Positions 5,550-39,032 of a stretch of DNA of 64,000 nucleotides are shown here, one piece after another (positions within the stretch are counted from its first letter, which is position 1; each line of letters starts with the position of its first letter). The position numbers and the translations under genes were made by a program. Origin of the DNA: Bacillota bacterium (lineage in GTDB: Bacteria > Bacillota > Dehalobacteriia > UBA4068); assembly GCA_024679955.1 (NCBI GenBank), contig JAILCQ010000009.1, forward strand, positions 76,814 through 140,813. Direction: 5' to 3'. A model generated the notes under the pieces. That model was not told the origin of the DNA and searched no databases. It saw only the letters and a list, made by a program, of their open reading frames with translations.

Positions 5550-5830
5550 TTCCTTGACCTCCTTATGTTGTATATATGCTGTCTATCTGGCAAGCAAAAA
5601 ATATCTCAAATACGTTTTTTATTTAACTTTAATTATACCACATGCCGGCAGGATTTGCCATAGCAAATCGGCAAATCCGGGATAAGAATATTTTTGAAAA
5701 AAAACAAGGTCAAACGCGAAACGGCCAGAAGTATTATAGTTGGCCGGAAAAAACGAGCGGTTCTTTTGCAGGAAAAAGTTCGCTTAGGATAACCGCCGCC
5801 GCCTCAACTGAAAGGAAAGGAGTTTTGAAC

Positions 5831-6523
5831 TTGAATTACACCAATGAAGTCACCAATATGTGCGTTGTGGCCAAAGGCGCCGATCATGGCCCCGCGCCGA
5901 TCCCGGAAGAAGGCAAATGGGTCGCCGCCAAACAAATCAGCGACATTTCCGGTTTGACCCATAGCGTGGGCCGCTGCGCGCCCCAACAGGGCGCTTGCAA
6001 GCTCACCCTGAACATCAAAAACGGTATCATTGAGGAAGCTTTGGTGGAAACTTTGGGTTGTAGCGGTATGACCCACTCCGCGGCGATGGCGGCGGAAATT
6101 TTGCCGGGAAAAACCATCCTGGAAGCGTTGAACACCGATTTGGTGTGCGACGCCATCAATGTGGCTATGCGGGAAATTTTTTTGCAAATCGTCTACGGAC
6201 GCAGCCAAACCGCCTTTTCTGAAAACGGCCTGCCCATCGGCGCCAGCCTGGAGGATTTGGGCAAAGGTATGCGCAGCCAGATCGGCACCACCTTTGGCAC
6301 CAAGGCCAAAGGCGCCCGCTATTTGGAAATTGCCGAGGGATATGTGACCAAGTTGGCTTTGGATAAAGATATGCAAATCATCGGCTACCAGTTCATCCAT
6401 TTGGGCAAAATGATGGATTTCATCAAAAAGGGTATGGATGCCAATGAAGCCTTGGCCAAAGCCACCGGCAAGTACGGCAGATTTGACGAAGCCGACACCT
6501 ATATCGATCCCCGGCAAGAATAG
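5831..6523 (+). CDS. IscU/NifU-N-like Fe-S scaffold-domain protein (partner of GGGtGRT protein)
   Basis: GACKLTLNIKNGIIEEALVETLGCSGMTHSAAMAAEILPGKTILEAL matches the IscU core pattern (GDVM.L.IKV..G.I.DA.F.T.GC..A.AS.S). The start is uncertain: a TTG at 5831 lies 8 nt after AGGAG, with an alternative ATG at 5858. Confidence 0.6.
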   Translation: MNYTNEVTNMCVVAKGADHGPAPIPEEGKWVAAKQISDISGLTHSVGRCAPQQGACKLTLNIKNGIIEEALVETLGCSGMTHSAAMAAEILPGKTILEALNTDLVCDAINVAMREIFLQIVYGRSQTAFSENGLPIGASLEDLGKGMRSQIGTTFGTKAKGARYLEIAEGYVTKLALDKDMQIIGYQFIHLGKMMDFIKKGMDANEALAKATGKYGRFDEADTYIDPRQE

Positions 6524-6539
6524 AAAAGGAGGCGCGACC

Positions 6540-7541
6540 ATGGCATTATTTGAAAGTTACGAAAGAAGAATCGATAAAATCAACAAGGTTTTGGCTGAAT
6601 ACGGCCTCGGTTCCTTGGAAGAGGCGGCGGAGCTTTGCCATAAGGCCGGTATAGATCCCTATACCACGGTAAAAGATATCCAGCCCATTGCTTTCGAGAA
6701 CGCTTGCTGGGCCTATACGCTGGGCAGCGCCATCGCCCTGAAAAAAGACTGCCGGGACGCCGCCGCGGCCGCCGAAGCCATCGGCATCGGCCTGCAGGCC
6801 TTTTGCATTCCCGGTTCGGTGGCGGAAAACCGCCAGGTAGGCGTGGGCCATGGCAATTTGGCGGCCATGCTGCTCAGGGATGAGACCCAATGCTTCGCCT
6901 TTTTGGCCGGCCATGAATCTTTCGCCGCTGCGGAAGGGGCCATCGGCATCGCCAAAAGCGCCAATACCGTGCGCAAACAGCCGCTGCGCATCATTTTGAA
7001 CGGTTTGGGCAAGGACGCGGCGATGATCATCGCCCGCATCAACGGCTTTACCTATTGTCAGACCAAGTTCGATTATTATACCAGCGAATTGACGGTCGTC
7101 CGGGAAATTGCCTATTCCAATGGCGAACGGGCGAAGGTGCGCTGCTTCGGCGCGGACGATGTGCGGGAAGGCGTGGCCATCATGCATCACGAGGGCGTGG
7201 ACGTGTCCATCACCGGCAATTCCACCAACCCCACCCGCTTCCAGCATCCGGTGGCGGGCACCTATAAAAAAGAATGCATAGAGCAGGGAAAACGCTATTT
7301 CTCCGTGGCCTCCGGCGGCGGCACCGGCCGCACCCTGCATCCGGATAATATGGCGGCGGGGCCGGCCTCTTACGGCATGACCGATACCATGGGCCGTATG
7401 CATTCCGACGCCCAGTTTGCCGGTTCCTCCTCCGTGCCGGCCCATGTGGAAATGATGGGCTTCATCGGCATGGGCAATAACCCGATGGTTGGGGCTACGG
7501 TGGCCTGCGCGGTGGCCGCCGCCAAAGCGCTGAACCGGTAA
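6540..7541 (+). CDS. GGGtGRT family protein
   Basis: 333 aa. The family-defining SGGGTGRTLHP motif is present, with an RBS aaaaggagg 8 nt upstream of the ATG. Confidence 0.85.
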   Translation: MALFESYERRIDKINKVLAEYGLGSLEEAAELCHKAGIDPYTTVKDIQPIAFENACWAYTLGSAIALKKDCRDAAAAAEAIGIGLQAFCIPGSVAENRQVGVGHGNLAAMLLRDETQCFAFLAGHESFAAAEGAIGIAKSANTVRKQPLRIILNGLGKDAAMIIARINGFTYCQTKFDYYTSELTVVREIAYSNGERAKVRCFGADDVREGVAIMHHEGVDVSITGNSTNPTRFQHPVAGTYKKECIEQGKRYFSVASGGGTGRTLHPDNMAAGPASYGMTDTMGRMHSDAQFAGSSSVPAHVEMMGFIGMGNNPMVGATVACAVAAAKALNR

Positions 7542-7597
7542 AAACGGCCCCTTTGCGGGTTTGGGAGTATGTTGCAGTTTTATTAATATAGGCAAAT

Positions 7598-7630
7598 AAA
7601 AGGGATCGAGGCCTCGCCTCGATCCCTTTG
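7598..7630. terminator. bidirectional rho-independent terminator
   Basis: aaaagggatcgagg-cc-tcgcctcgatcccttt palindrome between convergent genes. Confidence 0.7.
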
Positions 7631-7640
7631 TATACGCGGT

Positions 7641-8753
7641 TTATGCCAATATGGCGCAGGGGCGTCCCTTTCGGGCATGACGGCCGTATTTGCGGGCGGC
7701 CAGCAGCATAGCCAGGAGATTTTCCCGGCTGACGCCGGGGGGAAGCTGGCAACCGGCGGCCAGGGTGAAACCCATCGGATTGCCGGAAGCCTGCTCTATA
7801 CATCGTTTGCCCGCTTGCAGCACCTGATCCGTCGAACCCTGCAGCATCACTTCTACCGGCGGGATATTGCCGGCGATAGCGATTTTTTCTCCTGCCGCCT
7901 GCTGCAGCAGGGCCAGGCTTTCGCAGTCGTCCACCCGGAAAGAGGCGATGTCCAGCGTGGCCAGATCCGGCCAAATGGCGGCGGTTTTGCCGCAAATATG
8001 CAGGGAAGGCCGTTTGCCGGTGATCCGTATCGTTTCCTCTACCAGACGGCGCAAACGGGGCAAAATCAATTGCCGGAACAACCTGGGACTCAGCAGGTTC
8101 AGGGAAGCGGCCGGGTCGGCGATATTCACGCCGGTCACGCCGAACAGGCGATGGGCCGTTTGCACCCACAGCAATTGGCATTCCACGGAAAAATCCAAAA
8201 GCCGCTGCAATTCCTGGGGATGCTTGCGGCAATCCGCCATGACCATTTCCACCGGACGGATGGAAATGGCGGTGCTCATGGGCCCGCCGATTTCCGTTTT
8301 CACCGGGAAACCGTCGCCGAAATGGGCTTTGTAGCGGCCGATTTCATCCAGCAGCGGTTTTAAAACGGCATTGCTTTCCGGCTGCGGCGGTTCGTAAGCG
8401 CCGAGATCCGCATAATCGGTCAACGGTTGCTGCAGCAGATAATCCGCGTCCTGCTCCGGATAAACGGCTTTCGCCCCCAAGGCTTCGCCAATTTTTTTTA
8501 AATTGGGGCCGATGGCAATGCCATGACAGCCGAATTCCCGGGCGGCCTGTTGATATACGGCAGCCCGTACGGCAAACTGCCGCCGGTATTCGCTTACGCT
8601 GTAACCGTACAGCGGGGCCATGGTTTCCCGCACGGATATGGCTGCAGGCAGACGGTCCACTTCCTCTCCGGCGGCATAGGCCCGGCTGCGTTCCGCCGCC
8701 GTCATCTGATCTTTGTACCGTTCCAGTTCTTTATACAACGTATCTCTATCCAT
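7641..8753 (-). CDS. uroporphyrinogen decarboxylase (URO-D/MtaA-like) family protein
   Basis: About 370 aa of URO-D fold (MtaA/MtbA/HemE superfamily). The start is taken at MDRDTLYKELE. It is the last gene of the nine-gene operon. Confidence 0.65.
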   Translation of the reverse strand: MDRDTLYKELERYKDQMTAAERSRAYAAGEEVDRLPAAISVRETMAPLYGYSVSEYRRQFAVRAAVYQQAAREFGCHGIAIGPNLKKIGEALGAKAVYPEQDADYLLQQPLTDYADLGAYEPPQPESNAVLKPLLDEIGRYKAHFGDGFPVKTEIGGPMSTAISIRPVEMVMADCRKHPQELQRLLDFSVECQLLWVQTAHRLFGVTGVNIADPAASLNLLSPRLFRQLILPRLRRLVEETIRITGKRPSLHICGKTAAIWPDLATLDIASFRVDDCESLALLQQAAGEKIAIAGNIPPVEVMLQGSTDQVLQAGKRCIEQASGNPMGFTLAAGCQLPPGVSRENLLAMLLAARKYGRHARKGRPCAILA

Positions 8754-9816
8754 TTTTCTCCTGCTCCAGCAGGCCCAGCCATTGTCCGGCAAATCTTTTC
8801 AGGTCGAAATCGTTGGCTTGGTCAACGGTGGTCAGATAATGCTTGGGGAATATGCCTGCCCCGCGCCAGGCGCCGCCGATAGCGCCGATGATCGAGGCGA
8901 TGGCGGCCGTTTCGTCGCCGATATTCACGCCGTCCAACAAGGCGGCCATCACGTCGCCCTGATTGGCGATGAGCAGGCCGATTGCAACGGGGAAGGTCTC
9001 CGCCACGGCGGGGCCGCTGCCGATGATATCCCGCAGCTCTTCCATGGCGTTGGCGTCGCCTTTGACCGCCACGTCGATGGACATATCCAGGCGGCGGCTC
9101 ACGGAGGGGCCGGGGTACAGCCAGATATCCTTACGGGCCCGGGCCTGTTTTTCCCCTTCCGCCGCGCCGTATTTGGCGGCTTCTGTGATTGCATACAGGG
9201 TGACGTTGCCGTCCAGGGCCCGGCTGACGGCGGCGGCCATGGCGCAAGCGCCGGAAATGCTCAGCGGGTCGTCATGGGAAGCCATGGTCAATTCCACGGC
9301 GGCGGCAATGGCGGCGTCCACGTCGCCGGGATGCAGCAGCGCCGCCGGCCAGGCTTTCACCGCCGCGCCGTTGGAAGAAAGGGCGTAATAATGCCCTTTG
9401 AACAGTTTATTGCCCAAGTGTCCGGCATAGGACCACATTTCCTGCCGGTCGTCCTGTTTCAAACGGTTGACGACTTTGCGGGTGGTCATACCGGCGAAAG
9501 GCCCGAACCAGGGGCTTTCGCCCCATTGCCGCAAGGCTTCCTCTCCCGCCCGGCGGCTGGCTTGGCCGTGATTGAGAAAAAGCTGCTGCGACAGAAAATA
9601 GGGGATGGAGAAAGCGTCCGTGACCTGCCCGGCTTTTCTGCCCCGGGAAAGGCTTTGCTCCGACGGGGTGACGAAATCCGTGATCCGTCCGCCGTAAATC
9701 TGCATGATCTGTGTGGTGGAGAGCGGCTCCCCGGCGGCTCCCAAAGCGTCGCCGGCGGCAGCGCCGGTGATGCAGCCCAAATATTTATCCTGTAAAGTAA
9801 CGGTTTGAGCAGCCAT
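8746..9816 (-). CDS. ADP-ribosylglycohydrolase (ARH/DraG) family protein
   Basis: 356 aa with an N-terminal GAAAGDALG motif and ARH-fold Asp-rich metal-site motifs. Confidence 0.85.
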   Translation of the reverse strand: MAAQTVTLQDKYLGCITGAAAGDALGAAGEPLSTTQIMQIYGGRITDFVTPSEQSLSRGRKAGQVTDAFSIPYFLSQQLFLNHGQASRRAGEEALRQWGESPWFGPFAGMTTRKVVNRLKQDDRQEMWSYAGHLGNKLFKGHYYALSSNGAAVKAWPAALLHPGDVDAAIAAAVELTMASHDDPLSISGACAMAAAVSRALDGNVTLYAITEAAKYGAAEGEKQARARKDIWLYPGPSVSRRLDMSIDVAVKGDANAMEELRDIIGSGPAVAETFPVAIGLLIANQGDVMAALLDGVNIGDETAAIASIIGAIGGAWRGAGIFPKHYLTTVDQANDFDLKRFAGQWLGLLEQEKNG

Positions 9817-9818
9817 GC

Positions 9819-10862
9819 TTATCCCTCCTTCCGATTGACGCTGTTTTCGGCTATGGCGGTGATTTGCGCCGCCAGCGGCAGTATGGGCAAACCGTTGGCC
9901 TGCTCCAATGTGGGCAAAAAGTGACGGGGCCAGGCATTGGCGCCGTATAATGCGCCGGCGATGGCGCCGGTCATGGTACCGATGGTATCCGTATCATAGC
10001 CGATATTGGCCGCGCCCACGATAGCGCCCAGAGGATCTCCGGGATTGGCTGCCACCAAGCCCACGGCGCAGGGGATGGCCTCCGCCACATGGAGCCCGGC
10101 GCCGATGCACTGGCCCAGCAGCACCATTTTTTCTTCCGGGCTGCCCGGCCCCAGGCCGATTTCAATGGCTTTTTCCAGGCGTTTGACCACGGAAGGGGAG
10201 GCCACGTCCAGGGCGATCTCCCGGCCCCGGCGTTCTCCTTCTATCGCGCCGTAGCGGGCCGCCTGCAGTACCGAATACAGATCCGCTTCCGGGGTAAGGG
10301 CCTGGCTGACTGCGCAGGAAATGGCGCAGGCCCCGGAGAGCGCAGGGAAATTATCATGGGTGAGCATGGTGACGGTGATGCTGTCGGCGATGGTTTGTTC
10401 CAGGTCTCCGGGATGGAACATGCCGATCGGCGAGATGCGCATGGCCGAGCCGTTGGTCGCTTGCCGGGATTGCAGTTTGACGCCGCCGGAATCGGGCACC
10501 GTCTCCCCCTGGAATCGTTTGATCGCCACCCGGGTGGTGGGGCCGGCAAAACGGTCGAAGAAAACCGCATGCTTCGACCATTCCACCAAAGCTTGCTGTA
10601 CATTGGGCACATTGACCCGGCCGCCGTCGCCGGCAATGCTTTTGGCCAAAAACCAGGCGGAACTGAAATCGTCGGTGGCCTGTCCGGGAACGTTGCCCGC
10701 GCCGAAGGTATCATTGGGCGGGGTCTCAAAATCCGTTACCGTATGGCCGAAGTATTCCAGGATTTGCTCTGTGGTACGGGCTTCCGTAGCCGCGCCCATA
10801 CCGTCGCCGGCCGCCGCGCCGATCAAAGCGCCGAGGATCCGGTCGAATAGGGAATAGGACAT
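9819..10862 (-). CDS. ADP-ribosylglycohydrolase (ARH/DraG) family protein, tandem paralog
   Basis: 347 aa with GAAAGDGMG, paralogous to the preceding ARH gene. Confidence 0.85.
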   Translation of the reverse strand: MSYSLFDRILGALIGAAAGDGMGAATEARTTEQILEYFGHTVTDFETPPNDTFGAGNVPGQATDDFSSAWFLAKSIAGDGGRVNVPNVQQALVEWSKHAVFFDRFAGPTTRVAIKRFQGETVPDSGGVKLQSRQATNGSAMRISPIGMFHPGDLEQTIADSITVTMLTHDNFPALSGACAISCAVSQALTPEADLYSVLQAARYGAIEGERRGREIALDVASPSVVKRLEKAIEIGLGPGSPEEKMVLLGQCIGAGLHVAEAIPCAVGLVAANPGDPLGAIVGAANIGYDTDTIGTMTGAIAGALYGANAWPRHFLPTLEQANGLPILPLAAQITAIAENSVNRKEG

Positions 10863-10877
10863 ATGCTTTACCTCCGT

Positions 10878-12017
10878 TTACAGCATTTCGGTGAAGGCGT
10901 TGAGCCTGGTTTTGATCTGCTCGTCGCCGCTTTGGGAATAATCGGTTTCGATCGCCAGATAGGGCAGTCCCTTTTCTTCCGTGACCAGGCGGCGTACGTT
11001 TCTGGTCTCTATGGCGTAGGTCAAACAGGTTTGCAGCACCACTTCCACCACGCCGTCGATACGGAACTCGTCGATCATGCGCCGCAGCAGATCCATGCGG
11101 TAGGTGTTCGGCGACATGCAGGAGCAGCCGATATGCAAATAGCGGCGGGCCAGGGCGTCGTAAATGTCACCGGCGTCCTCATCCACCATCTCATAAAGGG
11201 ATTTGGCGCCGCTGCAGCTTTCAAAGGCCACGGCATAGGCGTTTTCTTCCAGCGCGGACAGCACTTTTTGATATACGCCGCCCAGGGGGCTGCCGGTCAC
11301 CAGGATACGCGGTCTTTTTTCTTTCAAGCCGCCTTGCTGCCGCAGCCGTTGGGTCAGCTCGACGATCTCCTGCCGGGCCGCTTCCCGGTCGAAACGGAAA
11401 GAACTGCCGTTCAGCACTTTATAACAATCCATACCCGTCATAGGCGGCGGGTCCATTTTCATCAATTCATAAAAATCTACCAGCGCCCGGCGTTCCCGAT
11501 TGCGTTGGGCCACGGCGGCCCGCAGTTTTTCCTCGGTGATTTCCACGCCGAATTTTTGTTCCAGGCAAGCTTTGAGCCGAAGGATTTCTTTTTTCCATAA
11601 TCGTAGCGCATCTTCGGATTGATTATTGGTCAATTCCATGACCCATACGTCTTTAAAATCCGCCAGATGCTCATACATTTTTTTCTTGCCGTCGCAAGTG
11701 GTTTCCGCAATGACCAGATCGGAGAAATAGAAATAGGGGCATTTATCCGTCTTGGCAAAACCGTAACTGGCTTTGATCAAGGGGCAGAGATTCCGGGGCA
11801 GGTCCTGCTCGGCGGCGGGTATGGTCTCGTCGCTGACCGAGCAAAGACTGACCACCGCCGCGCCGGCGGCCAGGGGCAATTCGATCGGCATATAGGTGCA
11901 AAAGATACCTACCAACGGTGTGCCGCTTTGTTTAAATTCTTTGGCTGTGATAAAGCTTTGCCTTCTTTGTTGGCTGAAGGTATCGAATATTTTCGGTAAA
12001 TCTGCGACCGTGCTCAT
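10878..12017 (-). CDS. 2-hydroxyacyl-CoA dehydratase / benzoyl-CoA reductase-family single-subunit Fe-S protein (HgdB/DCCP-like)
   Basis: 379 aa, Cys-rich (about 11 Cys), HgdB/BcrB-like fold. It is a solo subunit sharing an operon with a BcrAD/HgdC-type activase. Confidence 0.65.
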   Translation of the reverse strand: MSTVADLPKIFDTFSQQRRQSFITAKEFKQSGTPLVGIFCTYMPIELPLAAGAAVVSLCSVSDETIPAAEQDLPRNLCPLIKASYGFAKTDKCPYFYFSDLVIAETTCDGKKKMYEHLADFKDVWVMELTNNQSEDALRLWKKEILRLKACLEQKFGVEITEEKLRAAVAQRNRERRALVDFYELMKMDPPPMTGMDCYKVLNGSSFRFDREAARQEIVELTQRLRQQGGLKEKRPRILVTGSPLGGVYQKVLSALEENAYAVAFESCSGAKSLYEMVDEDAGDIYDALARRYLHIGCSCMSPNTYRMDLLRRMIDEFRIDGVVEVVLQTCLTYAIETRNVRRLVTEEKGLPYLAIETDYSQSGDEQIKTRLNAFTEML

Positions 12018-12163
12018 AATCGTTCCTTTCTTTTCTTATATTGCAATACGGTATGCTGCGCTTCGCTGGGGCTTCTATACCGGTATTGCGCTTGCGGCGG
12101 CGTTTACCGCCGCCTTTTGCGGATCTGCATATACGGTGGATGGGTTGTATGGCTTGCCAATAG

Positions 12164-12205
12164 TAAAGTATCTCACTTACCGTTAGATGAAGTGAGATAC
12201 TTTAC
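12164..12205 (-). other. intercistronic perfect 16-bp stem-loop (mRNA stability or processing element)
   Basis: gtaaagtatctcactt-(11 nt)-aagtgagatactttac between the SBP and DCCP genes, with no T-run, so not a classic terminator. Confidence 0.5.
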
Positions 12206-12277
12206 CAAAGCGTTAGAAAAAGAAGAGATAAGAGATGGATTTATCAGAAGAATTCTATTGTAGATATAGGCTGCGCA

Positions 12278-13393
12278 TTATTTCCAGCCGTCGTATTGAT
12301 CCACGTTGTCGGCGTTGACCAAAGCGAAGGGCGTCCAGAACATATCTTCGGTGATTTCATGGCCCTGAACCGCTTTCAACGCCAGGATCAGGCCGGCTTT
12401 ACCGAACAGGTAGGGGGACATGACCACGGAACCGTCCAGTTCGCCGTTTTCAATGGAGGTTTTGGCTTCTTCGATGAAGTCGATACCGACCACTTTCACC
12501 TGGTCTTTGACGCCGGCGGCTTTCATGGCTTCCACCACGCCCAAGGCCATTTCGTCATTGGCGCACATAATGCCCTGCAGGTCGGGATTGGCTTGCAGGA
12601 TATTGGTGGCGATGTCATAAGCCGTTTGACGGTCCCAGTTGGCCGCTTCTACCGCCACGATTTCGCCGCCGTTTTCTTCAAAACCGGCGATGGCGCCGTT
12701 TTTCCGCTGTTCGCTGTTGTCCGCGCCGGCCTGGCCTTCGATGACGGCCACTTTGCCGGAGCCGCCCAACAGTTCCATGATGTAGGAAGCGCCCAGTTTG
12801 CCTTGGGCTTCAAAGTCGGAGGTAACGAAAGCTTCCACTTTCGCGCCGGCGTCTTTGGCGGCCTGTTCGTCGATGTTGGTGCCGACGGCTACGACTTTAA
12901 TGCCGCGAGAGGTGGCTTCGGCCACCGGGTTCACCAGACTGAAGGGCGTCATGGCGGAGACGGCAAACGCGTCATAATCTTTGGCCAGCAGCGCGGTCAT
13001 GGCGTCCGCCTGGCCTTGTTCATCGGCTTCGTTGGGGGAGGCGACCACGTCTACGCTTACGCCGTATTCTTTGGCGGCGTCTTCATAGCCTTCCTGAACG
13101 GTCACCCAGAAAGGATTGGTCATGCTGAAGGCGATGGCGCCGATCTTTTCACCGTTTCCTTTTTCCGGCAGCGGAGACAAGGCTTCCAGCATAGAAGCTT
13201 CCGCTTCTTTCAGCAATTCGTTGGTGATGGTAAAGGAGTCTTCTTCTGTGTTGGCGGCTTCGTTGTTTTCATCGGTTTCGGCAGACGTGTCATCCTGCGT
13301 ATCCGCGGGATTTTCCTGGGTGCAGCCGCAAAACGCGAAGCAGGCCAGCAACAGGCACAGAGTAACGATCAACAAAAATTTGATTCTTTTCAT
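12278..13393 (-). CDS. sugar ABC transporter substrate-binding lipoprotein (ribose/xylose-type PBP1)
   Basis: Lipobox LLACFAFCGC, an acidic low-complexity linker, then a periplasmic-binding-protein type-1 fold. Confidence 0.85.
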   Translation of the reverse strand: MKRIKFLLIVTLCLLLACFAFCGCTQENPADTQDDTSAETDENNEAANTEEDSFTITNELLKEAEASMLEALSPLPEKGNGEKIGAIAFSMTNPFWVTVQEGYEDAAKEYGVSVDVVASPNEADEQGQADAMTALLAKDYDAFAVSAMTPFSLVNPVAEATSRGIKVVAVGTNIDEQAAKDAGAKVEAFVTSDFEAQGKLGASYIMELLGGSGKVAVIEGQAGADNSEQRKNGAIAGFEENGGEIVAVEAANWDRQTAYDIATNILQANPDLQGIMCANDEMALGVVEAMKAAGVKDQVKVVGIDFIEEAKTSIENGELDGSVVMSPYLFGKAGLILALKAVQGHEITEDMFWTPFALVNADNVDQYDGWK

Positions 13394-13500
13394 TCTTTTT
13401 CTTTTCCTCCTTGCTATTTCTGCATCTCTTCTATATTATTACTTCCATCCGAAGGACGGAGGTCCGGGGGACGGAAGCGATAACCCCAAAGCGATCCTTC

Positions 13501-14445
13501 TTATTTGGCGTGCTCCCGCATAAAGCGTTTTACTTCATCCGCATGCGCCTTGATGCGGGGACCGAAACGAAGGCATTTCATAGCGCCCACCGCCGCCGCG
13601 AATTCCAGCGCCGCCTGGGCGCTTTGGCCTTCGTGGAAAAAGGCGTAGATCAGGCCGCCCAAAAAACTGTCCCCGGCCCCGGTAGAATCTACCGGCACAA
13701 TGGAGAAGGCGGGACTGTGCAGGGTTTTTCCCTCCTGCAGCCATATGGCGCCGCAATCGCCGGCGGTGCATACCGCGCCGAAACGGGGACGGTATTCTTC
13801 ATATACGGCGGCCAGCGCCTGCTGCATATCCGCTAAACCGCTGTATTCCTCATACGGCTCCCGGCCGCTGACGATCAAGTCGGCCAGGGCCAGCGAGGCC
13901 TCCAGATCCGCGTCTGTGTTGCCGGCTTTTCGCATAAAGCTGGGCGTGCATTGCATACATAAGACCACGGGGATGTCCTTTTTTTTGCACATACGAGCGA
14001 TCTTCAGCGTCGCTTTCCCCGGGAAGAAGTCGCTGTAGAACAAATCTACCCCATCCAGGATGGATTCGTCGATCTCCTCCGGTTGCAGATCCATCAAAGC
14101 GTCGCCCAAATTGACGAAAATGCAGTGATTGCCTGTGGCTGCCGCCCAAATATAGGTATGCAGGGTGACGCCGCCCGGCTTTTCTACCAGCCAACCGTCC
14201 TCCACGCCGTCTTGCCGCAGGGTGGAGCGGAACAAACGGCCCCGCTCATCGTCGCCGATCTTGGCCAACAGGCGGGCCCGCACCCCCAAGGCGGCCAGAG
14301 CCGCCAGCATATTGGCGCAGCTGCCGCCGGGCAGGAGTTGCTCCCGGTCAATGACTTGAAAACTGTCTTCCTGAGGCAGGCGGTCGCAACCGATCACGGT
14401 GTCCATGGCCGCCGCGCCCAGGCCCAAAACGGTGTTTACCGACAT
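13501..14445 (-). CDS. PfkB-family carbohydrate/nucleoside kinase (ribokinase-like)
   Basis: 314 aa. N-terminal GGAAMD plus GG dipeptide, and a C-terminal DSTGAGDSF anion-hole motif. Confidence 0.85.
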   Translation of the reverse strand: MSVNTVLGLGAAAMDTVIGCDRLPQEDSFQVIDREQLLPGGSCANMLAALAALGVRARLLAKIGDDERGRLFRSTLRQDGVEDGWLVEKPGGVTLHTYIWAAATGNHCIFVNLGDALMDLQPEEIDESILDGVDLFYSDFFPGKATLKIARMCKKKDIPVVLCMQCTPSFMRKAGNTDADLEASLALADLIVSGREPYEEYSGLADMQQALAAVYEEYRPRFGAVCTAGDCGAIWLQEGKTLHSPAFSIVPVDSTGAGDSFLGGLIYAFFHEGQSAQAALEFAAAVGAMKCLRFGPRIKAHADEVKRFMREHAK

Positions 14446-14517
14446 GCGTTTTCCTTCTTTCTATGATCCAGCTTTCCGGCAGCCGCCGGAAACGCTATGG
14501 TATTCGATGAGATTCGA

Positions 14518-15501
14518 TCAATGGGAACGATCCCGGTTGTTTCTGATCTGCGCGATGATGATGGCAATGAGGATGACCCCGCCGGTGATCAGTTGTTGGA
14601 AATAGGTGGGGATGGACAACAGGGTCAGGCCGTTGCGCAATACGCTCAAGGTGATGCAGGCGATAAAGACGCCGAAAATGGAACCGCTGCCGCCGTTGAG
14701 GCTGCCGCCGCCCAAAACCACGGCGGCGATGGCGTCCATCTCATAGGTGGAACCGGCCAAGGGGGCCGCCGAATTCAAACGGGCGGTCATGATCAGACCG
14801 GCCACGGCGGCGCAAAAACCGGATACGGCATAAATGCTGATGCGGTACAGATTGACCCGCACCCCGGAACGGCGCAGGGCTTCGGCATTGCCGCCCAGGG
14901 AAAGGCTGTATTTGCCCCACAGGGTGCGGCGCATCACCACAAAAGCGGCCAGGGTCAGCAGCAGGGAAAGGACGATGGGTGGATTCAGCGGGCCGATATC
15001 GCCGGTTCCCCACCATTTGAAGCTTTGGGCAAAACCGTATATGGATACGCCGCCGGTCAGGATCAGGGCGACGCCCCGGGTAATGGTCATGGTGGCCAGG
15101 GTGGTGATAAAGGGATTGACGCGGATCAGGGCAACGATGACGCCGTTGACCACGCCGGAAACGACGCCGATGGCTATGCCCAGCAAAATAGCGGGGTAGG
15201 TGGCAACGCCCCCATGCATCAAAACAGCCATGATGACGCCGCACATACCGGCGACGCTGCCTACGGAAAGATCGATGCCGCCGCTGGCAATGACGAAAGC
15301 CATGCCCAGGGACAATATCAGATATACGGAGCATTGATCCAGGATATTGCGAAAGTTTTTCCAGGCCCAGAAATAATCCGAGCTGACAGATAGGAAAATC
15401 ACCAAAACCAACAAAGCCAGCGTCAGCAATAATTGTGGAAAAGCGCGGCTCAAAGTGGCGGAAAAGGCGGTTTTCCCTTGGCCGGTATCGTGTTTTTTCA
15501 T
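14518..15501 (-). CDS. ABC transporter permease (RbsC/CUT2-type)
   Basis: Polytopic membrane protein of the branched-chain/ribose permease family. Start taken at MKKHDTG, overlapping the ATPase stop (ATGA coupling). Confidence 0.8.
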   Translation of the reverse strand: MKKHDTGQGKTAFSATLSRAFPQLLLTLALLVLVIFLSVSSDYFWAWKNFRNILDQCSVYLILSLGMAFVIASGGIDLSVGSVAGMCGVIMAVLMHGGVATYPAILLGIAIGVVSGVVNGVIVALIRVNPFITTLATMTITRGVALILTGGVSIYGFAQSFKWWGTGDIGPLNPPIVLSLLLTLAAFVVMRRTLWGKYSLSLGGNAEALRRSGVRVNLYRISIYAVSGFCAAVAGLIMTARLNSAAPLAGSTYEMDAIAAVVLGGGSLNGGSGSIFGVFIACITLSVLRNGLTLLSIPTYFQQLITGGVILIAIIIAQIRNNRDRSH

Positions 15502-16262
15502 TGTTTGGCTCCATTTGACGCCGAACCGCCGACGATCATGCAAACGATATCGTCCGCGGTAACGGATTTTGTATCCAGTACAGCCAGAACCTTCCCTTGC
15601 CGTATCACGCAAATGCGATCTGACAATTCAAATACCTGTGGGATATTGTGGCTGATGATGATGACGCCGTATCCCTGGTCGGCCAGGTGGCGGATCAGCT
15701 TTTGCACTGCCGCGGTTTCTTTCAGGCCCATGGCCGCCGTGGGCTCGTCGAGGATGATCATTTTCCCGCCCTGGCGAATGGCACGGGCCACCGCCAAAGC
15801 CTGCCGCTGGCCGCCGGAAAGATCGGCCACGACCGACTCCTGATCCGGGATGGATACCTGCAGCCGCTCCAGAAGCTCTGCCGTTTCCCGGCGCATCTTT
15901 TTCTTATTGAGCCAGCCCCAGCGCCGGTATTCATGGCCGAGAAAGATGTTTTCCCAGACGGTTTGGGTATTGACCAGCGCCAGATCCTGATATACGGTGG
16001 TGATGCCTTTTTCCTCCGCCAGTTTCGGCGTCAGGTGTGCAAAGCTTTGTCCGTCTATGGAGATTACCCCGCCGTCCGGCGTGATGGCCCCGGATAAAGC
16101 TTTGATCAAGGTGCTTTTGCCGGCGCCGTTATCGCCGACGATGGCCAGTATTTCCCCGGGATAGGCTTCCAGACTGGCGCCTTTCAGCGCCTCGATATGG
16201 CCGAAGTTTTTTTTCAAGTTTTCTACCCGTATATAGGGTTGCCGTTCGTTCACCTTACGCAC
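15498..16262 (-). CDS. ABC transporter ATP-binding protein (single NBD)
   Basis: Walker A GDNGAGKST, signature LSGGQRQ, Walker B IILDEPT. Confidence 0.9.
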   Translation of the reverse strand: MRKVNERQPYIRVENLKKNFGHIEALKGASLEAYPGEILAIVGDNGAGKSTLIKALSGAITPDGGVISIDGQSFAHLTPKLAEEKGITTVYQDLALVNTQTVWENIFLGHEYRRWGWLNKKKMRRETAELLERLQVSIPDQESVVADLSGGQRQALAVARAIRQGGKMIILDEPTAAMGLKETAAVQKLIRHLADQGYGVIIISHNIPQVFELSDRICVIRQGKVLAVLDTKSVTADDIVCMIVGGSASNGAKQ

Positions 16263-16334
16263 CTCGATCGTTGAAAAGGCTTATATGGGAAAGGCTTTTC
16301 CCGCCAGGAAAGCAGGGAAAGCCCGGCATTCGCT

Positions 16335-17099
16335 TTACCGTTCCGCCGCCAAGAGCGCCGCGCCGATGGCGCCCGCAAATCTGGCGTTTTCATGGCTGAC
16401 CAGGGGCTTGCCCAGTCGCTGGCCCAGGGCGCGGATCAGGTTTTCCTGCTTGCATAGGCCGCCGGTAAGAAAAACCGGCTCGTCGCTGATGAGCTTGGCG
16501 GCCTGGGCGCAGACTTTTTGCACGATGGAATCCACAATGGCGTAGGCGATATCCGCCCTGGCCGTTCCTTTGCCGATCAAACCCACCACTTCCGACTCGG
16601 CGAAGACCGTGCACATGGAAGAAATATGCACGCCGCCGCCGGTGGCGGCCAAATCGCATAATTCGTCAATGGATATGCCCAGGGCCGCGGACATGATTTC
16701 CAAAAAACGGCCTGTCCCGGCAGAGCATTTGTCGTTCATCATAAAATCCCGCACTTTGCCGTGCTCGATGCGCATGATCTTGCTGTCCTGGCCGCCGATA
16801 TCGATCACCGTGGCCGCTTCCGCGCCGAACAGCCAATACGCGCCTCTGCCATGGCAGGTGATTTCGGTAATGCGCTTGCCGGCATAGGCGACGGCGTTGC
16901 GGCCGTATCCGGTGGCCACCACTTTTTCCTGCTGTACGTCCATGTGCAGGCGGGCGAAATCTTCCGCCAAAGCCTGGGCGGCGCCGGCGCTGTCCCAACC
17001 GGTGGGACGCAGCAGCGTATGCAGCAAAGCGCCCGTCTCATCGACTACGGCCGCCTTGGCGCTGGAGGAACCAATATCGATACCAATAAAAAAAGACAT
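16335..17099 (-). CDS. BadF/BadG/BcrA/BcrD-type ATPase (2-hydroxyacyl-CoA dehydratase activase HgdC-like)
   Basis: FIGIDIGSSSAKAAV N-terminal ASKHA motif, NDKCSAGTGRF cluster-ligand loop, about 255 aa. First gene of the operon. Confidence 0.8.
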   Translation of the reverse strand: MSFFIGIDIGSSSAKAAVVDETGALLHTLLRPTGWDSAGAAQALAEDFARLHMDVQQEKVVATGYGRNAVAYAGKRITEITCHGRGAYWLFGAEAATVIDIGGQDSKIMRIEHGKVRDFMMNDKCSAGTGRFLEIMSAALGISIDELCDLAATGGGVHISSMCTVFAESEVVGLIGKGTARADIAYAIVDSIVQKVCAQAAKLISDEPVFLTGGLCKQENLIRALGQRLGKPLVSHENARFAGAIGAALLAAER

Positions 17100-17198
17100 A
17101 CCTTTACCTCTTTGCAAGCCCAAGACGGGAAAGTCCGGTGTTGTGGCATGTAATGGTTAGAAACAAAAGTTTAAATTATCCTAGAAACAGCATGATTA

Positions 17199-17227
17199 AG
17201 TATAGCATGCTGCCCTAACAGTTTCAA
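17199..17227 (-). promoter_or_regulatory. sigma-A-type promoter for the nine-gene operon
   Basis: On the minus strand: TTGAAA, a 17-nt spacer, then TATACT, about 100 nt upstream of the activase start. Confidence 0.5.
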
Positions 17228-17314
17228 TGAAATCCAGGGGATTTTAATATTGTTTTTCAATATAATAGTATTATATTATCGATTAAATCGATGTATAATC
17301 ATGTATGATTGCAA

Positions 17315-17351
17315 ATAAAAATCCCAAGATACACCGGGCCGGTATCTTGGG
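17315..17351 (-). terminator. rho-independent terminator of hisC
   Basis: cccaagatac-cggcccggt-gtatcttggg stem followed by a T-run on the minus strand. Confidence 0.75.
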
Positions 17352-17410
17352 ATTGGTACAAACGCTATGAAAGCCGCGGCAGGCCGCCGGGGCGGGGGAC
17401 AGAAGAGAGA

Positions 17411-23705: not shown

Positions 23706-26081
23706 ATGAGCGAAAAGAAAAAAAATCGCCAAATCGACGACGGGCTGTTGGCGAAAATGGACGCCTATTGGCGCGCCGCCAATTATTTATCTTTGGGCCA
23801 ACTGTATCTGATGGACAATCCTTTGTTGAAGGAACCGTTGGCTTGGGAGCATATCAAACCTACCGTAGTTGGCCATTGGGGCACCGCGCCCGGACAGAAT
23901 TTTATCTATGTCCATTTGAATCGAGTGATCAAACAGTACGATTTGGATATGATCTATATATCCGGCCCGGGCCACGGCGGCCAAGCCATGGTTTCCAATA
24001 CCTGGCTGGAAGGCTCCTATTCCCAGGTGTATCCCAATATCAGCCAGGACGAGGCGGGGATGAAAAGGCTGTTCAAGCAGTTCTCTTTCCCCGGCGGCAT
24101 TTCCAGCCATGTGGCCCCGGAAACCCCCGGTTCCATCAATGAAGGCGGGGAATTGGGCTATTCGCTGGCCCATGCTTTCGGCGCGGTGCTGGACAATCCG
24201 GATCTGATCGCCGCCTGTGTGGTAGGGGATGGGGAAGCGGAAACCGGTCCCTTGGCCACAGCCTGGCATGGCAATAAGTTTTTGGATCCCCGCAGCGACG
24301 GGGCTGTTTTGCCCATCCTGCATCTGAACGGCTATAAAATCGCCAATCCCACCGTTTTGGCGCGGATCCCGGAGGAGGAATTGGAGCAGTTCTTCTACGG
24401 TTGCGGTTGGCGTCCCTATTTTGTCAGCGGCAGCGATCCGATGGAAATGCACCGGCAGATGGCGGAAACCCTGGATGCGGTGATCGGCGAGATCCTGCAG
24501 ATCCGCCGCAACGCCCGGGAAAACGGGGATTCCGGCCGTCCCCGCTGGCCGCTGATCGTCTTCCGTTCGCCCAAGGGCTGGACCGGGCCGAAAGAGGTCA
24601 ACGGCCTGCCCAATGAAGGCAGCTTCCGTTCCCATCAGGTGCCCCTGGCGGTGAACCGGGATCATCCGCAAAATCTGATTTTACTGGAACAGTGGCTGAA
24701 AAGCTACCGGCCGCAAGAATTGTTCACCGAGGAAGGCCGGCTGAAACCGGAATTGGCGGAGCTGGCGCCGGAGGGGGAGCGGCGCATGGGCGCCAATCCC
24801 CATGCCAACGGCGGCGAATTGCTGCGAAATTTGAAAACCCCGGATTACCGGCAATACGCATTGCCTTTGGAAAAACCGGGGGCTACGGAAGCGCAGGATA
24901 TGACGGTTTTGGGCGGCTATATGCGGGATCTGGTACGGGAAAATCCCTCGACCTTCCGCCTGTTTGCCCCGGATGAAACCGTATCCAATCGCCTGGGAGC
25001 GGTGTTCGAAGTGACCGACCGCAAATGGAACGGCCAAACCCTGGCGGAAGACGATCATCTGGCTCCTGCCGGGCGGATCATGGATTCCATGCTTTCCGAG
25101 CATGTATGCCAGGGTATGCTGGAAGGCTATTTGCTGACCGGACGGCACGGCGTGTTCAGCAGCTACGAGGCCTTCATCCGCATTGTGGATTCCATGTTCA
25201 GCCAACATGCCAAATGGCTGAAAGTGACGGCCCAATTGCCCTGGCGGGAGGATATCGCCTCTTTGAATTATCTGCTGTCCTCTCATTGCTGGCAGCAGGA
25301 TCATAACGGCTTTACCCATCAGGACCCAGGCTTTTTGGATCATGTGGCCAATAAAAAAGCGGACGTGATCCGCTTGTACCTGCCGCCGGACGCCAATTGC
25401 CTGCTTTCGGTGTTTGACCATTGCATCAAAAGCCGCAATTATGTCAATGTGGTGGTGGCTTCCAAGCATCCCCGTCCTCAGTGGTTGACTATGGAGCAGG
25501 CCATCATCCATTGCACCCAGGGCATCGGTATCTGGCAATGGGCCGGCAACGACCAGGGCCAGGAACCGGATATCGTCATGGCCTGCTGCGGCGATACGCC
25601 CACGCTGGAAACATTGGCGGCGACCACCATTTTGCATGAGCATTTTCCGGAGATCAAGATCCGCGTGGTCAATGTGGTGGATCTGATGCGCCTGCAGGCG
25701 GATACGGTACATCCCCACGGCCTGTCCGAGATCGATTACGAGTCCCTGTTTACCGGGGATAAGCCGGTGATCTTCGCTTTCCACGGTTATCCTTCTCTGA
25801 TCCATGAGCTTACCTATCATCGCCGCAACAAACCCGCCCAGGTACATGGCTATATCGAAGAAGGAACCATCACCACGCCTTTCGACATGCGGGTGCAGAA
25901 CGGTTTGGATCGCTTCCATCTGACGCTGTCCGCCCTGGATCATTTGCCGCGGCTGGGCAATCGCAGCGGCTATTTGCGGCAGCTGATGCGGGATAAACTG
26001 GTGGAACACAAGCAGTATATTGCCGATTATGGCCAGGACTTGCCGGAAATCCGCAATTGGCGGTGGAAACCCCTGGAATAA
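23706..26081 (+). CDS. xfp: xylulose-5-phosphate/fructose-6-phosphate phosphoketolase
   Basis: 791 aa with TPP-binding motifs ([16 protein letters not shown]) and strong family match. Confidence 0.95.
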
Positions 26082-29678: not shown

Positions 29679-30126
29679 AGGTCTATTCCCTCCGTTTCCC
29701 TATTATACGCATATATCGAAAAAATAGTCAATTGCCGCGCCCGGTCTTATTGCGGAACAAAGGCCGGAAAAGAGGATTTTTTTCGCTTTTGCCGCTATAA
29801 AAAATCAAAGAAAAATGAAAGGCCTTTGATTTTTTCTCTGGCAATATCAGAAGGTATATAGTATAATAAGAATTAAAATATGGGATAGTATTTTGTTTTG
29901 CCGAAACGCGGGGAAATACGAAAAACGTAAACGGCAGGAAAGCCCCCTGCGTGACGGCAAAATATAGCGATAGATCGATGGAAAGCGGCCCTTTAGCGGC
30001 GGCGGCGCAACCATTTGCCGCCCGCGGCGGGAACGGTTGCCGCAAAAGTAATTCTTATCCTTGCCTTAGGCAATGCAAGCAGGCAATTCAAATAAAACAG
30101 TCATTCCAAAGTAAAGGGGAAATTCT

Positions 30127-33100: not shown

Positions 33101-33448
33101 ACGGCTGCGGAGAAAACGCCGGTAGCGGAAAAGGCAACGGAAGCGCCGGCCGCCAAAGAAAAGGCGGAAGCGGAAAGCCGGCCGGCAGCAGCCCCGGCGG
33201 CGCAGCCTCAGCCTGCCGCCGAGAAAGCGGAAGCCGTTATCGACGAGGCGGACGAATTGCTGCGCTTGGCCAAAAACGAGGCGGAGGTTTTGGCCCAGGC
33301 GGCCAAGGATGGCGGCGATCATGCTTTGGACAAGCTGAATGACGCCAACTTGCAGCAGGCCATCGAAACCCGGGCCGCCGAAAAGAAAGAAGCGGAAGAA
33401 GAAGCGGAATTGCGCAAAGCCATTTTTTCAATGATCGATAAAAAATAA
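30127..33448 (+). CDS. large acidic Ala/Glu/Lys-rich coiled-coil protein with a tandem (EEAPAA)n repeat
   Basis: About 1107 aa from a GTG preceded by aaagggg. There is no signal peptide or TM segment, heptad-like A/E/K/Q composition throughout, about 15 hexapeptide repeats, and a basic G/H-rich segment (KGKRHNGHGNGEENG). Confidence 0.7.
32180..32455 (+). repeat. 18-bp coding tandem repeat (gaagaagcccctgcggcg)n, about 15 units
   Basis: Direct, near-perfect 18-bp units encoding EEAPAA, with occasional T/V/E substitutions. Confidence 0.9.
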
Positions 33449-38079: not shown

Positions 38080-38404
38080 CCCGGCAAAGCTCCGTATCGT
38101 CGCTGCCCAGAACCTGATAGGCGCGATAGCATAATACGATGAGAAAAGCGGTTATGCCGAAACCGATCACGATGGCTGTCAGGATCAGCGCCTGGGGCAA
38201 AGGATCCGCATAAGCGGCGGCAGCCCGGGCATGGAGGAGCGGCGCCGCGCCGGCATTCAATTTGCCCATGGCCAGCAACAGCAAAAGCACGCCGTGAGTA
38301 GTTAAGCTGACGCCCAATAGGATACGCAACAGGGTGCGGCTCAACAGCAGATAGATACCGGCGCTGAACAATGCGCCGATGACGATGGCGATCAACAATT
38401 CCAT
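38063..38404 (-). CDS. mrpC: Na+/H+ antiporter subunit C (NuoK-like)
   Basis: 113 aa with three TM segments. Confidence 0.85.
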   Translation of the reverse strand: MELLIAIVIGALFSAGIYLLLSRTLLRILLGVSLTTHGVLLLLLAMGKLNAGAAPLLHARAAAAYADPLPQALILTAIVIGFGITAFLIVLCYRAYQVLGSDDTELCRGAENE

Positions 38405-38432
38405 TTTTACATCTCCCTTCCGGCCGGCGGCT

Positions 38433-39032
38433 TTATGCTTCGTCTTTGTGCCGGGGATTTTGTCTTCCCGGGATATGGACCTTCCGGTCAGGCCGCCCGT
38501 CGCGGCCGCTTTCGCCGATGGCGGTGATGATGGATAGGCAAGCGCCGCAAACCGTACAGTAAACGCCCAAATCGAAAACGGTGGCTGTGGTCCATTGGAT
38601 ATCGCCCAGCAGCGGCAGGGAAAGAACGCCGAAGCTATGGGTCAAAAACGGGCGCCCCAGGAGGACGGCGGCCAAGCCGCAAACCAAAGCCAGGGACAGG
38701 CCGATGGCGACCAAATATTTGAAATCGAAATCCAGGCTATGCAGCCAGCGGGAGCCCAAGGCCAGATAGGCCAGGAGCACGGCGGCGGCGGTGATCAATC
38801 CGGCGATAAAACCGCCCCCCGGCGCATGATGCCCATACCAAAACAGGAAAAAGGCCAGGAACAGAATGATATATACCAGCCAGCGGATAGAGGTTTGCAG
38901 AATCAGCGGATTGCCCTTGCTCGCGTCCCTGGGCGCAGTGGGCTCGGCCTGTGGCGTTTTGGGGCTTCCGGCCGCTCTATCCGTTTTGTTGGAGAGGGTT
39001 TCCGATGTTTTCGTTTTTGCATATGGTTTCAT
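38433..39032 (-). CDS. mrpB: Na+/H+ antiporter subunit B
   Basis: MnhB domain with a hydrophilic N-terminal extension. ATGA overlap with mrpA. Confidence 0.7.
   Translation of the reverse strand: MKPYAKTKTSETLSNKTDRAAGSPKTPQAEPTAPRDASKGNPLILQTSIRWLVYIILFLAFFLFWYGHHAPGGGFIAGLITAAAVLLAYLALGSRWLHSLDFDFKYLVAIGLSLALVCGLAAVLLGRPFLTHSFGVLSLPLLGDIQWTTATVFDLGVYCTVCGACLSIITAIGESGRDGRPDRKVHIPGRQNPRHKDEA

Follow-up and report, generated by a model that had tools for sequence, protein, structure and literature searches.

Which compound would require a sugar-type importer, a kinase, and two proteins of the ADP-ribosylglycohydrolase (ARH) fold to be encoded together with an ATP-driven iron-sulfur reductase? 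The question is raised by nine consecutive minus-strand genes of a Bacillota bacterium (GTDB lineage Dehalobacteriia), which lie in a 64-kb stretch of contig JAILCQ010000009.1 (positions 76,814 to 140,813, assembly GCA_024679955.1). This whole stretch of 64,000 nucleotides is referred to as the window. All nine open reading frames (ORFs) were verified at their coordinates, and profile searches assigned each of them, with E-values ≤1e-32, to the family already named in the initial annotation (Table 1). The locus is modular and consists of a six-gene core with optional reductase and methyltransferase modules. In our view, there is about an even chance that the encoded proteins take up, phosphorylate, and cleave a riboside or nucleoside-like compound, the cleavage being carried out by an ARH enzyme, and that demethylation and ATP-driven reduction of the recalcitrant aglycone follow.

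A six-gene core and its optional partner modules

An alignment of homologs of the first ARH protein (ARH-A) led to 80 loci from a species-level genome collection, in which the nine proteins were mapped and the neighboring ORFs were clustered; individual loci are cited by their L numbers. The ATPase and permease of an ATP-binding cassette (ABC) transporter, a PfkB kinase, a substrate-binding protein (SBP), ARH-A, and its paralog ARH-B form a core that travels together in approximately 50 species with ≥54% ARH-A identity. These species belong to several groups of anaerobic Firmicutes (Lachnospiraceae, Tissierellales, Peptococcaceae, Pelotomaculum, Thermacetogenium, Syntrophaceticus, Mogibacterium, and Christensenellaceae). 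Accessory families were counted within 10 kb of the core in 57 loci. A short PsuG/IndA-like protein (PF04227) was encoded in 29 of them, an MtaA-like protein of the URO-D family in 20, a double-cubane cluster protein (DCCP) in 15, and an activase in 11, followed by a B12-binding corrinoid protein (8), a glycyl-radical enzyme (7), and nitrogenase-like genes (5). The conservation of the gene neighborhood, which had been proposed as a check, was thus confirmed for the core block, and the accessory modules were found to vary. The idea of one indivisible nine-gene pathway had to be given up in favor of a core with optional modules, as neither DCCP nor the UroD-like protein accompanies the core in most species. 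An identical arrangement of all nine genes was found in a related uncultured Peptococcaceae metagenome-assembled genome, the nearest one in the species collection, with 74–91% amino acid sequence identity, indicating that the arrangement is not due to chance.

The suspected association of an iron-sulfur reductase with ARH, kinase, and transporter genes was borne out by the comparison. The DCCP genes of the 15 loci occur in at least six orders and orientations relative to the ARH core, and in other loci a nitrogenase-like or a glycyl-radical enzyme is present instead. Nitrogenase-like genes adjoin the core in L046, L049 (NifH fragment only), L058 (a nitrogenase-like D/K pair), L093, and L106. 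In Pelotomaculum (L046), the gene order is NifH-like, ARH, ARH, ATPase, permease, kinase, SBP, NifD-like, NifK-like; the layout is similar to that of the window, with NifH leading and NfD/NfK following the SBP like activase and DCCP, respectively. L093 and L106 encode IndA, NifH, PfkB, NifD/K, and a major facilitator superfamily (MFS) transporter together with UroD, PfkB, an ARH-A–ARH-B fusion, two more ARH proteins, and a corrinoid protein. The glycyl-radical enzymes of the seven loci, all from Lachnospiraceae, are closest to choline trimethylamine-lyase and to glycerol/diol dehydratases. Of these three partner kinds, the DCCP and the nitrogenase-like proteins are low-potential reductases driven by ATP, and the glycyl-radical enzyme is a radical eliminase. 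We regard the finding that three unrelated enzyme kinds adjoin the same core as the best argument for a difficult reductive or radical step in the pathway of many lineages.

The nitrogenase-like D/K proteins of the relatives were also considered as Mar orthologs. This assignment was not supported, as they are very divergent and gave weak matches to NifE and none to Mar in the PDB. A very divergent NifH together with two Oxidored_nitro proteins recurs in gut metagenomes (metagenome contigs L096–L102; L106, 8918–18942; L093, 11089–17222). This set clusters with a Bmp/PnrA nucleoside-binding protein, an ABC ATPase with two nucleotide-binding domains (NBDs), two permeases, PfkB, and a PsuG/IndA-like protein, without an ARH protein; in L098, a DCCP is also encoded in such a nucleoside-type cluster. 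In the reviews consulted, no nitrogenase-like clade in a nucleoside context was found to be described. The Bmp/PnrA proteins of the related metagenomic nitrogenase-like clusters are accompanied by NupABC-type transporters, and L106 additionally encodes an MFS transporter of the Nuc_H_symport type. These transporters indicate nucleoside-like substrates for the wider network.

The PsuG-like family acts on ribose 5-phosphate adducts. No PsuG-like gene (PF04227) was detected anywhere in the 64-kb window. In the close relatives L007, L008, and L010, such a gene fills exactly the gap between the SBP and DCCP genes, and a search for its remnant in the corresponding 260-nt gap of the window found none. 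Two further neighborhoods of the core were observed. An RluA-type pseudouridine synthase gene adjoins it on the opposite strand in L030 (12175–12843), L034, L037, L043, and L050, which belong to two lineages; its link to the PsuG-like companion may be coincidental. In Tissierella praeacuta (L005, 3265–5794), genes for PNP_UDP_1, an IF-2B (MtnA-like) isomerase, and a class II aldolase lie directly 5′ of the ARH core and make up a dihydroxyacetone phosphate (DHAP)-shunt set for methylthioadenosine or 5′-deoxyadenosine.

Properties of the core and partner proteins

The ATPase (254 amino acids) covers just the first half of the RbsA, XylG, and YtfR profiles (approximately 500 positions), and this half-size form is kept in 46 of the 57 related loci. 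The SBP shares 40% identity with AlsB (203 bits) versus 24% with RbsB, and its score of 239 bits with NF007254 was below the cut-off of 335. Of ten residues that we take to be the sugar contacts of the ribose-binding protein (RBP), seven are kept in the SBP, and the aligned equivalents of D89, R90, and Q235 are G, T, and M. The best structural relatives of the kinase are ribokinases, and its GAGD catalytic motif is kept; the pseudouridine kinase profile gave a marginal match only. In a sequence alignment, the kinase positions equivalent to N14, K43, and E143 of RbsK, presumably ribose contacts, are occupied by A, S, and F. The replacement of three such contacts in each of the two proteins favors a substrate other than free ribose. 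A canonical rbsABC transporter with rbsK, which had been named initially as a refuting case, was not found, since the rbs/als equivalogs all scored far below their cut-offs (RbsB 115 versus 337, ribokinase 100 versus 300), the ATPase has one NBD, and the contacts are altered.

ARH-A and ARH-B are 37% identical to each other and match PF03747 with 183 and 139 bits, respectively, at a gathering threshold of 26.2. In ARH-A, the di-metal ligands are complete (T63-D64-D65 and D290-T291-D292-T293), and the TDD and DTDT motifs are retained in 52 of 57 orthologs. Both motifs are common to ARH-A and Escherichia coli YegU, which are 32% identical over the full length, and ARH-A is predicted to be the catalytic glycosidase. 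In ARH-B, the corresponding motifs read TDA and (D/N)ET(S/A)A instead of TDD and DTDT, and three of the six ligand positions are lost. As this pattern is the same across approximately 46 orthologs, it represents a conserved change and not decay. The initial annotation had counted two ARH hydrolases; the family assignment holds for both proteins, but ARH-B, devoid of half of the metal ligands, is probably a non-catalytic or specificity partner of ARH-A. Natural ARH-A–ARH-B fusions in four loci (L021, L051, L093, and L106) suggest a physical pair. Both ARH proteins stay far below the cut-offs of the DraG and Tri1 equivalogs (66 and 50 bits versus 337 and 490, respectively).

Homologs with less than approximately 47% identity to ARH-A of the window stand alone. 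Of 25 loci of this kind, 15, mostly from Bacilli, have the lone homolog flanked by genes for EIIBC of a phosphotransferase system (PTS) and a GntR/UTRA regulator. These homologs would meet a phosphorylated substrate, which suggests an ARH-fold phospho-glycosidase family. In L060–L084 (e.g., L062, 8584–11753), from Bacilli and some other Firmicutes, the single homolog (39–47% identity) is located between the PTS EIIBC and GntR/UTRA genes, with BglG-type antiterminators and EIIA often nearby.

The DCCP aligned with the structure of Carboxydothermus hydrogenoformans DCCP (6eno, 245 bits) including all cluster cysteines, which are found at positions 40, 59, 78, 108, 268, 300, and 331. The seven-cysteine motif was recovered by this alignment; the spacings are 1–7 residues shorter than in the published pattern (CX19CX18-19CX29CX166-170CX32-34CX32C), and the literal expression fails. 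The protein lacks the N-terminal extension that closes a channel in the C. hydrogenoformans enzyme and belongs to the short class II form. Its full-length identity to E. coli YjiM is 57%, and the activase shares 40% identity with YjiL; the two genes are in the same operon with four transporter and kinase genes between them. The identities of the solo DCCP-like protein and its activase were thus corroborated, but the DCCP turned out to be an ordinary YjiM-type protein with equally close homologs in unrelated contexts. DCCP homologs of 58–62% identity in gut Clostridia reside in unrelated housekeeping neighborhoods, which argues for a general YjiM-type enzyme and against a specialized paralog. 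By family membership, a putative [8Fe-9S] cluster and ATP-driven reduction of a small molecule can be assigned to this protein. The physiological function and substrate of DCCPs have not been established (PMC7317905), and DCCPs co-occur tightly with selD (Haft preprint).

For the product of the last gene, a UroD-fold decarboxylase or methyltransferase had been considered. Its score with TIGR01463 (MtaA/CmuA) was 126.5 bits, below the cut-off of 235.4, and still the best match (hemE, 27 bits); the sole PDB match of this URO-D-fold protein was MtaA (4ay7). Without exception, the 19 locus-associated homologs have H265-x-C267 and C348. His-Cys-Cys ligation marks S- and Se-methyltransferases in the superfamily, whereas O-demethylases replace the cysteines (PMC10418091). 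Judged from the profile match and the ligand motif, the protein is an MtaA-like zinc methyltransferase; of the two functions considered, the methyltransferase was retained and the decarboxylase dismissed. The subfamily is rare (48 database matches), and seven of seven examined homologs with ≥52% identity sit in ARH loci; a 45%-identical homolog is located beside MetNIQ and a 35%-identical one beside pyrimidine genes. Type 1 mlp clusters often neighbor DCCP and MarHDK homologs, and ClMlp2 methylates selenide (PMC10418091, Kountz & Balskus); ARH, PfkB, or sugar transporters are not mentioned in that paper. With one Mlp-like gene only, the window falls outside the definition of a type 1 mlp gene cluster. 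In Muricomes intestini (L019), a complete set of Mlp, RACo, and corrinoid protein together with DCCP abuts the ARH core, and three or four URO-D genes are present.

Transcription unit and genomic surroundings

Judged from gene spacing and flanking signals, co-transcription of the nine genes is likely, and they are regarded as a single transcription unit, in which the gap between the SBP and DCCP genes may contain a processing or promoter site. The tight or overlapping junctions described initially apply to four of eight (4-nt overlap at ATGA, 15 nt, 2 nt, and 8-nt overlap), whereas at the other four the genes are 72, 72, 107, and 260 nt apart. The likely start codons are ATG 17102 for the activase, with a ribosome-binding site present, ATG 15501 for the permease, overlapping the ATPase stop codon (ATGA), and ATG 8753 for the UroD-like gene, the 370-amino acid product of which is identical to database protein P0241. 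Of the single strong promoter proposed earlier, the element itself was confirmed (Table 1), but not its singleness: the 260-nt gap (12018–12277) contains a hairpin and a weak promoter-like match, so a single promoter is not provable from sequence. The stems of the hairpin are 100% identical in the closest relative (L001), while the remainder of the gap is approximately 75% identical, with loop and flanks diverged. This inverted repeat was found only once in the window; it may serve as an RNA processing, stabilizing, or attenuating element, or as an operator.

Table 1. Genes and signals of the nine-gene locus (window coordinates)
Feature	Position	Strand	Evidence
Activase, BcrAD/HgdC-type, "archerase" of the YjiL/DCCP-R type, ATP-dependent [4Fe-4S]	16335..17102	-	PF01869 2.8e-52; TIGR00241 236 bits (cut-off 125)
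CUT2-type ABC ATPase, half-size (single NBD)	15498..16262	-	254 amino acids, profile match
ABC permease	14518..15501	-	BPD_transp_2
Ribokinase-like PfkB kinase	13501..14445	-	PF00294 3.9e-34
Lipoprotein SBP, closest to D-allose-binding protein	12278..13393	-	PF13407 (Peripla_BP_4) 4.5e-59
DCCP, class II, YjiM ortholog	10878..12017	-	NF040772 486.3 bits (cut-off 350)
ARH-A, ARH fold, intact di-metal site	9819..10862	-	PF03747 1.3e-53
ARH-B, ARH paralog with degenerate metal site	8746..9816	-	PF03747 2.5e-40
MtaA/CmuA-like zinc methyltransferase (predicted), URO-D fold, His-Cys-Cys	7641..8753	-	PF01208 1.8e-47
Sigma-70-like promoter TTGAAA-17-TATACT, TG-extended -10	17199..17227	-	10/12 consensus matches
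Terminator-like hairpin and U-run after hisC, upstream boundary of the unit	17311..17354	-	dG -22.5 kcal/mol, z -3.8, then UUUUUAUUU
Intrinsic terminator at the end of the unit	7592..7629	-	14-bp GC-rich stem, then UUUUAUUU; dG -28.4 kcal/mol, z -6.0
Hairpin in the SBP-DCCP gap, 17–19 bp perfect inverted repeat, no U-tract	12162..12206	-	dG -29.5 kcal/mol, z -7.6

The unit is flanked by housekeeping genes (hisC, nspC, a gene for a MetH-activation-domain protein, and the convergent genes of a GGGtGRT and a NifU-like protein), which do not accompany the cluster in more distant relatives. The upstream aminotransferase gene was considered as a member of the pathway and rejected, as it is hisC above the equivalog cut-off (TIGR01141, 344 bits versus 277) and a terminator lies between it and the unit. 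The GGGtGRT-family and NifU-like proteins are encoded at the end of the operon (5642–7541), and in T. praeacuta (L005, 16023–18460), a NifU_N gene is located immediately 5′ of the DCCP/activase pair; these NifU-like neighbors hint at a cluster-assembly helper. A gene for a xylulose 5-phosphate/fructose 6-phosphate phosphoketolase (23706–26081), located 6 kb from the operon, encodes a plausible sink for pentose phosphate.

Farther along the window, an ORF of 1165 amino acids (29951–33448) is Ala/Glu/Lys-rich and coiled-coil-like, with no Pfam match and an extreme AT skew (0.40). Large Mrp/Mbh-type antiporter-like membrane subunits with Proton_antipo_M and MbhD/E domains (36571–41581) suggest a membrane-bound hydrogenase or Mrp complex. 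A CobT-type (DBI_PRT) phosphoribosyltransferase is encoded next to a GntR/FCD regulator (41859–43626); enzymes of the CobT type make α-ribotides of cobamide lower ligands. The region 44309–50468 encodes a BCCT transporter, a B12-binding corrinoid protein (46164–46847), an uninterrupted MtmB-family methyltransferase (46911–48308), and two ORFs without a family match; it forms a methyltransferase cluster of its own, which is corrinoid-dependent and may serve a quaternary amine.

Proposed pathway, rival explanations, and related systems

In the proposed pathway, the core ABC importer with its SBP would take up a ribo-configured glycoside, i.e., a riboside or nucleoside-like compound, which the PfkB kinase would phosphorylate on the sugar. 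A heterodimer of ARH-A and ARH-B would then hydrolyze the glycosidic bond to ribose 5-phosphate and the free aglycone, and ribose 5-phosphate could enter central metabolism via the phosphoketolase encoded in the window. The MtaA-like enzyme would demethylate or methylate the aglycone at a soft heteroatom (S or Se), with a corrinoid supplied from elsewhere as the methyl carrier. Finally, DCCP and its activase would supply ATP-energized electrons for a very-low-potential reduction or reductive cleavage of the aglycone or of a fragment thereof. Glycosidic cleavage followed by phosphorylation of the sugar had been proposed initially; by analogy with the PTS-linked ARH-A homologs and with the logic of psuK/psuG, this order is probably reversed. 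A glycoside phosphorylated before its cleavage is also favored by the changed contact residues and the PsuG-like companions.

A number of points weigh against this pathway. Most core-bearing species encode neither DCCP nor the UroD-like protein within 10 kb of the core. The contexts of the DCCP homologs (58–62% identity) and of YjiM (57%) are unrelated to it, so the DCCP may have a general role and only a loose link to the core; two transcripts are conceivable in view of the hairpin and the promoter-like match in the 260-nt gap. The substrate can be named as a class only and not as a compound. The ARH-A/ARH-B heterodimer is deduced from gene fusions, and ARH proteins are usually monomers. The arguments from RbsK and RBP residues compare aligned positions with presumed contacts and not structures, and the SBP, which is closest to a pyranose-binding protein, fits a free sugar equally well as a glycoside. 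The operon encodes neither a corrinoid protein, which adjoins the core in eight of the related loci, nor a RACE activator; the nearest B12-binding protein is that of the separate MtmB-like cluster (46164–46847), 30 kb away. Searches of the window (E-value mode) and of 22 related loci gave no riboswitch or regulator that points to the ligand, and no cobalamin riboswitch controls the core; the riboswitches that were seen (cobalamin, ZTP, glycine, and molybdenum cofactor) belong to neighboring genes.

A more specific idea, which we regard as doubtful and yet worth keeping in view, is the scavenging of S- or Se-ribosides, candidates being thio- or methylthio-nucleosides from tRNA, α-ribosides of cobamide lower ligands (e.g., 2-methylthioadenine), or their seleno analogues. 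ARH-A/ARH-B would then act as a riboside-5′-phosphate hydrolase, the MtaA-like enzyme in S- or Se-demethylation, and DCCP in ATP-driven reductive C-S or C-Se cleavage or in ring reduction, a task that nitrogenase-like enzymes would take over elsewhere. Salvage of α-ribazole via CblT/CblS is known in the literature; α-ribazole or another cobamide ligand as the substrate of this operon is speculation.

The core alone is found in most species, the 58–62% DCCP homologs and E. coli YjiM have their unrelated contexts, and the 260-nt gap with its conserved hairpin and promoter-like site splits the locus into halves. All this would fit a mosaic, in which the core is a self-contained sugar or riboside module and the DCCP, activase, and MtaA-like genes share an anaerobic transcript while serving unrelated substrates. 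We nevertheless consider a mosaic unlikely. With one to two DCCP genes per genome of approximately 3 Mb, we estimate that approximately 1–2% of the loci should have a DCCP within 10 kb, as opposed to the 15 of 57 observed in varied orders and orientations. Moreover, activase and DCCP flank the transporter genes on both sides in the operon of the window, L046 has a similar layout with NifH first and NfD/NfK after the SBP, and close MtaA-like homologs are confined to ARH loci. An about equally unlikely alternative is a pathway for an unusual free ribo- or allo-sugar (5-methylthioribose, a seleno analogue, or a rare hexose), in which the ARH proteins would act on the sugar phosphate and DCCP and the MtaA-like enzyme would process the methylthio or methylseleno fragment, as in a DHAP shunt followed by methylthio-alkane reductase. 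The 40% identity of the SBP to the allose-binding protein, the position of the T. praeacuta core directly after PNP_UDP_1, IF-2B (MtnA-like), and class II aldolase genes, the His-Cys-Cys ligation of the methyltransferase, the 45%-identical UroD homolog adjoining MetNIQ, and the published association of methyl-S and methyl-Se metabolism with Mlp, DCCP, and Mar (PMC10418091) speak for it. However, from what is known of their families, PfkB and PsuG-like enzymes need a free 5-OH or 5-phosphate group, which is absent in 5-thio-substituted riboses. In addition, the ARH fold is to our knowledge known only as a hydrolase of glycosidic bonds, isomerase and aldolase genes are missing from the window and from most loci, and the related superclusters carry nucleoside-type transporters.

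Two further explanations appear far less probable. As DraG belongs to the ARH family, the ARH pair could be regulatory and free the activase or a NifH-like ATPase of an inhibitory ADP-ribose, with transporter and kinase being incidental; NifH-like genes directly adjoin ARH genes in L046, L049, L093, and L106, and activase and DCCP share the operon with the ARH genes in the window. We hold this function to be highly improbable, because the pair always occurs with transporter and kinase, and more than 30 loci have no reductase within 10 kb; the DraG and Tri1 equivalogs reached 50–66 bits versus 337 and 490, clustering of the neighboring ORFs gave no conserved ADP-ribosyltransferase-like family, and the homologs in Bacilli accompany PTS genes. 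An ordinary rbs or als operon with extra genes attached would agree with the families found, which are those of rbsACBK and alsBAC. It is just as hard to credit in view of equivalog scores far below all cut-offs, the half-size ATPase, the replaced key ribose contacts, the lack of RbsD, RbsR, AlsE, and AlsK, and an ARH pair that is obligate in the block.

Since the module is present in Lachnospiraceae of the human and mouse gut and in syntrophs from anaerobic digesters, the compound is likely to be a common and overlooked source of nutrients or trace elements in anoxic habitats. Three widespread groups of proteins without a known physiological role meet at this locus: the double-cubane proteins (YjiM/YjiL), which have been structurally characterized since 2018, the YegU-like ARH proteins, and several nitrogenase-like clades. 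The locus offers a practical route to the substrates of YjiM-type proteins, YegU-like ARH proteins, and one nitrogenase-like clade, since the dedicated binding protein of the module turns the substrate question into a feasible ligand-fishing experiment. If the compound were indeed an S- or Se-riboside, this would be the first physiological function for YjiM/YjiL-type proteins, YegU-like ARH proteins, and a Group IV nitrogenase-like clade.

No characterized system of this type was found in the literature searched, which covered ARH in combination with DCCP, with PfkB/pseudouridine, or with ribokinase and an ABC transporter, as well as YjiM/YjiL. All protein families are known, and as far as this literature shows, the combination of an ARH pair, kinase, and transporter with interchangeable partners and an S/Se-type methyltransferase is undescribed. 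The resemblance to E. coli yegTUV, which is regulated by GgaR/YegW and uncharacterized (PMC10819704), had been pointed out in the initial annotation. Both loci combine a protein of the ARH fold with a PfkB kinase and a transporter, and the resemblance held for the ARH protein (32% identity to YegU) but neither for the kinase, which with 21% identity is not an ortholog of YegV, nor for the transporter class. Transporters of the nucleoside:H+ symporter type in the MFS, like YegT, are encoded in L093 and L106, whereas the window has an ABC importer with SBP, a second, degenerate ARH protein, no GntR regulator, and the additional DCCP, activase, and MtaA-like genes. With rbsDACBK and alsBACEK, the locus shares the CUT2 family transporter, an AlsB-like SBP, and a ribokinase-like kinase; it differs in the half-size ATPase, the altered contacts, and the lack of pyranase, epimerase, and repressor genes.

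The optional modules have counterparts of their own. Similar to type 1 mlp clusters (PMC10418091), the locus combines an MtaA-like URO-D fold with His-Cys-Cys ligation, recurring DCCP or MarHDK-like neighbors, and anaerobic Firmicutes hosts, but it contains just one Mlp-like gene and lacks both a corrinoid protein and a RACE activator. The DCCP passes NF040772, has the seven cysteines, and shares an operon with an archerase-type activase, as do DCCP/DCCP-R of C. hydrogenoformans and YjiM/YjiL; in the window, however, the pair is split by four genes and set in a glycoside-type operon. In the psuK/psuG system (yeiC/yeiN), a PfkB kinase makes a 5′-phosphate from which a glycosidase frees ribose 5-phosphate. 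A divergent PsuG/IndA-family gene accompanies the core in 29 of 57 relatives, whereas in the window, which is devoid of it, cleavage is assigned to the ARH-fold proteins. Nitrogenase-like reductases (MarBHDK and the Group IV nitrogenase-like proteins) have no genes in the window; they are ATP-driven low-potential reductases as well, and in relatives they occupy the place of DCCP and activase beside the core.

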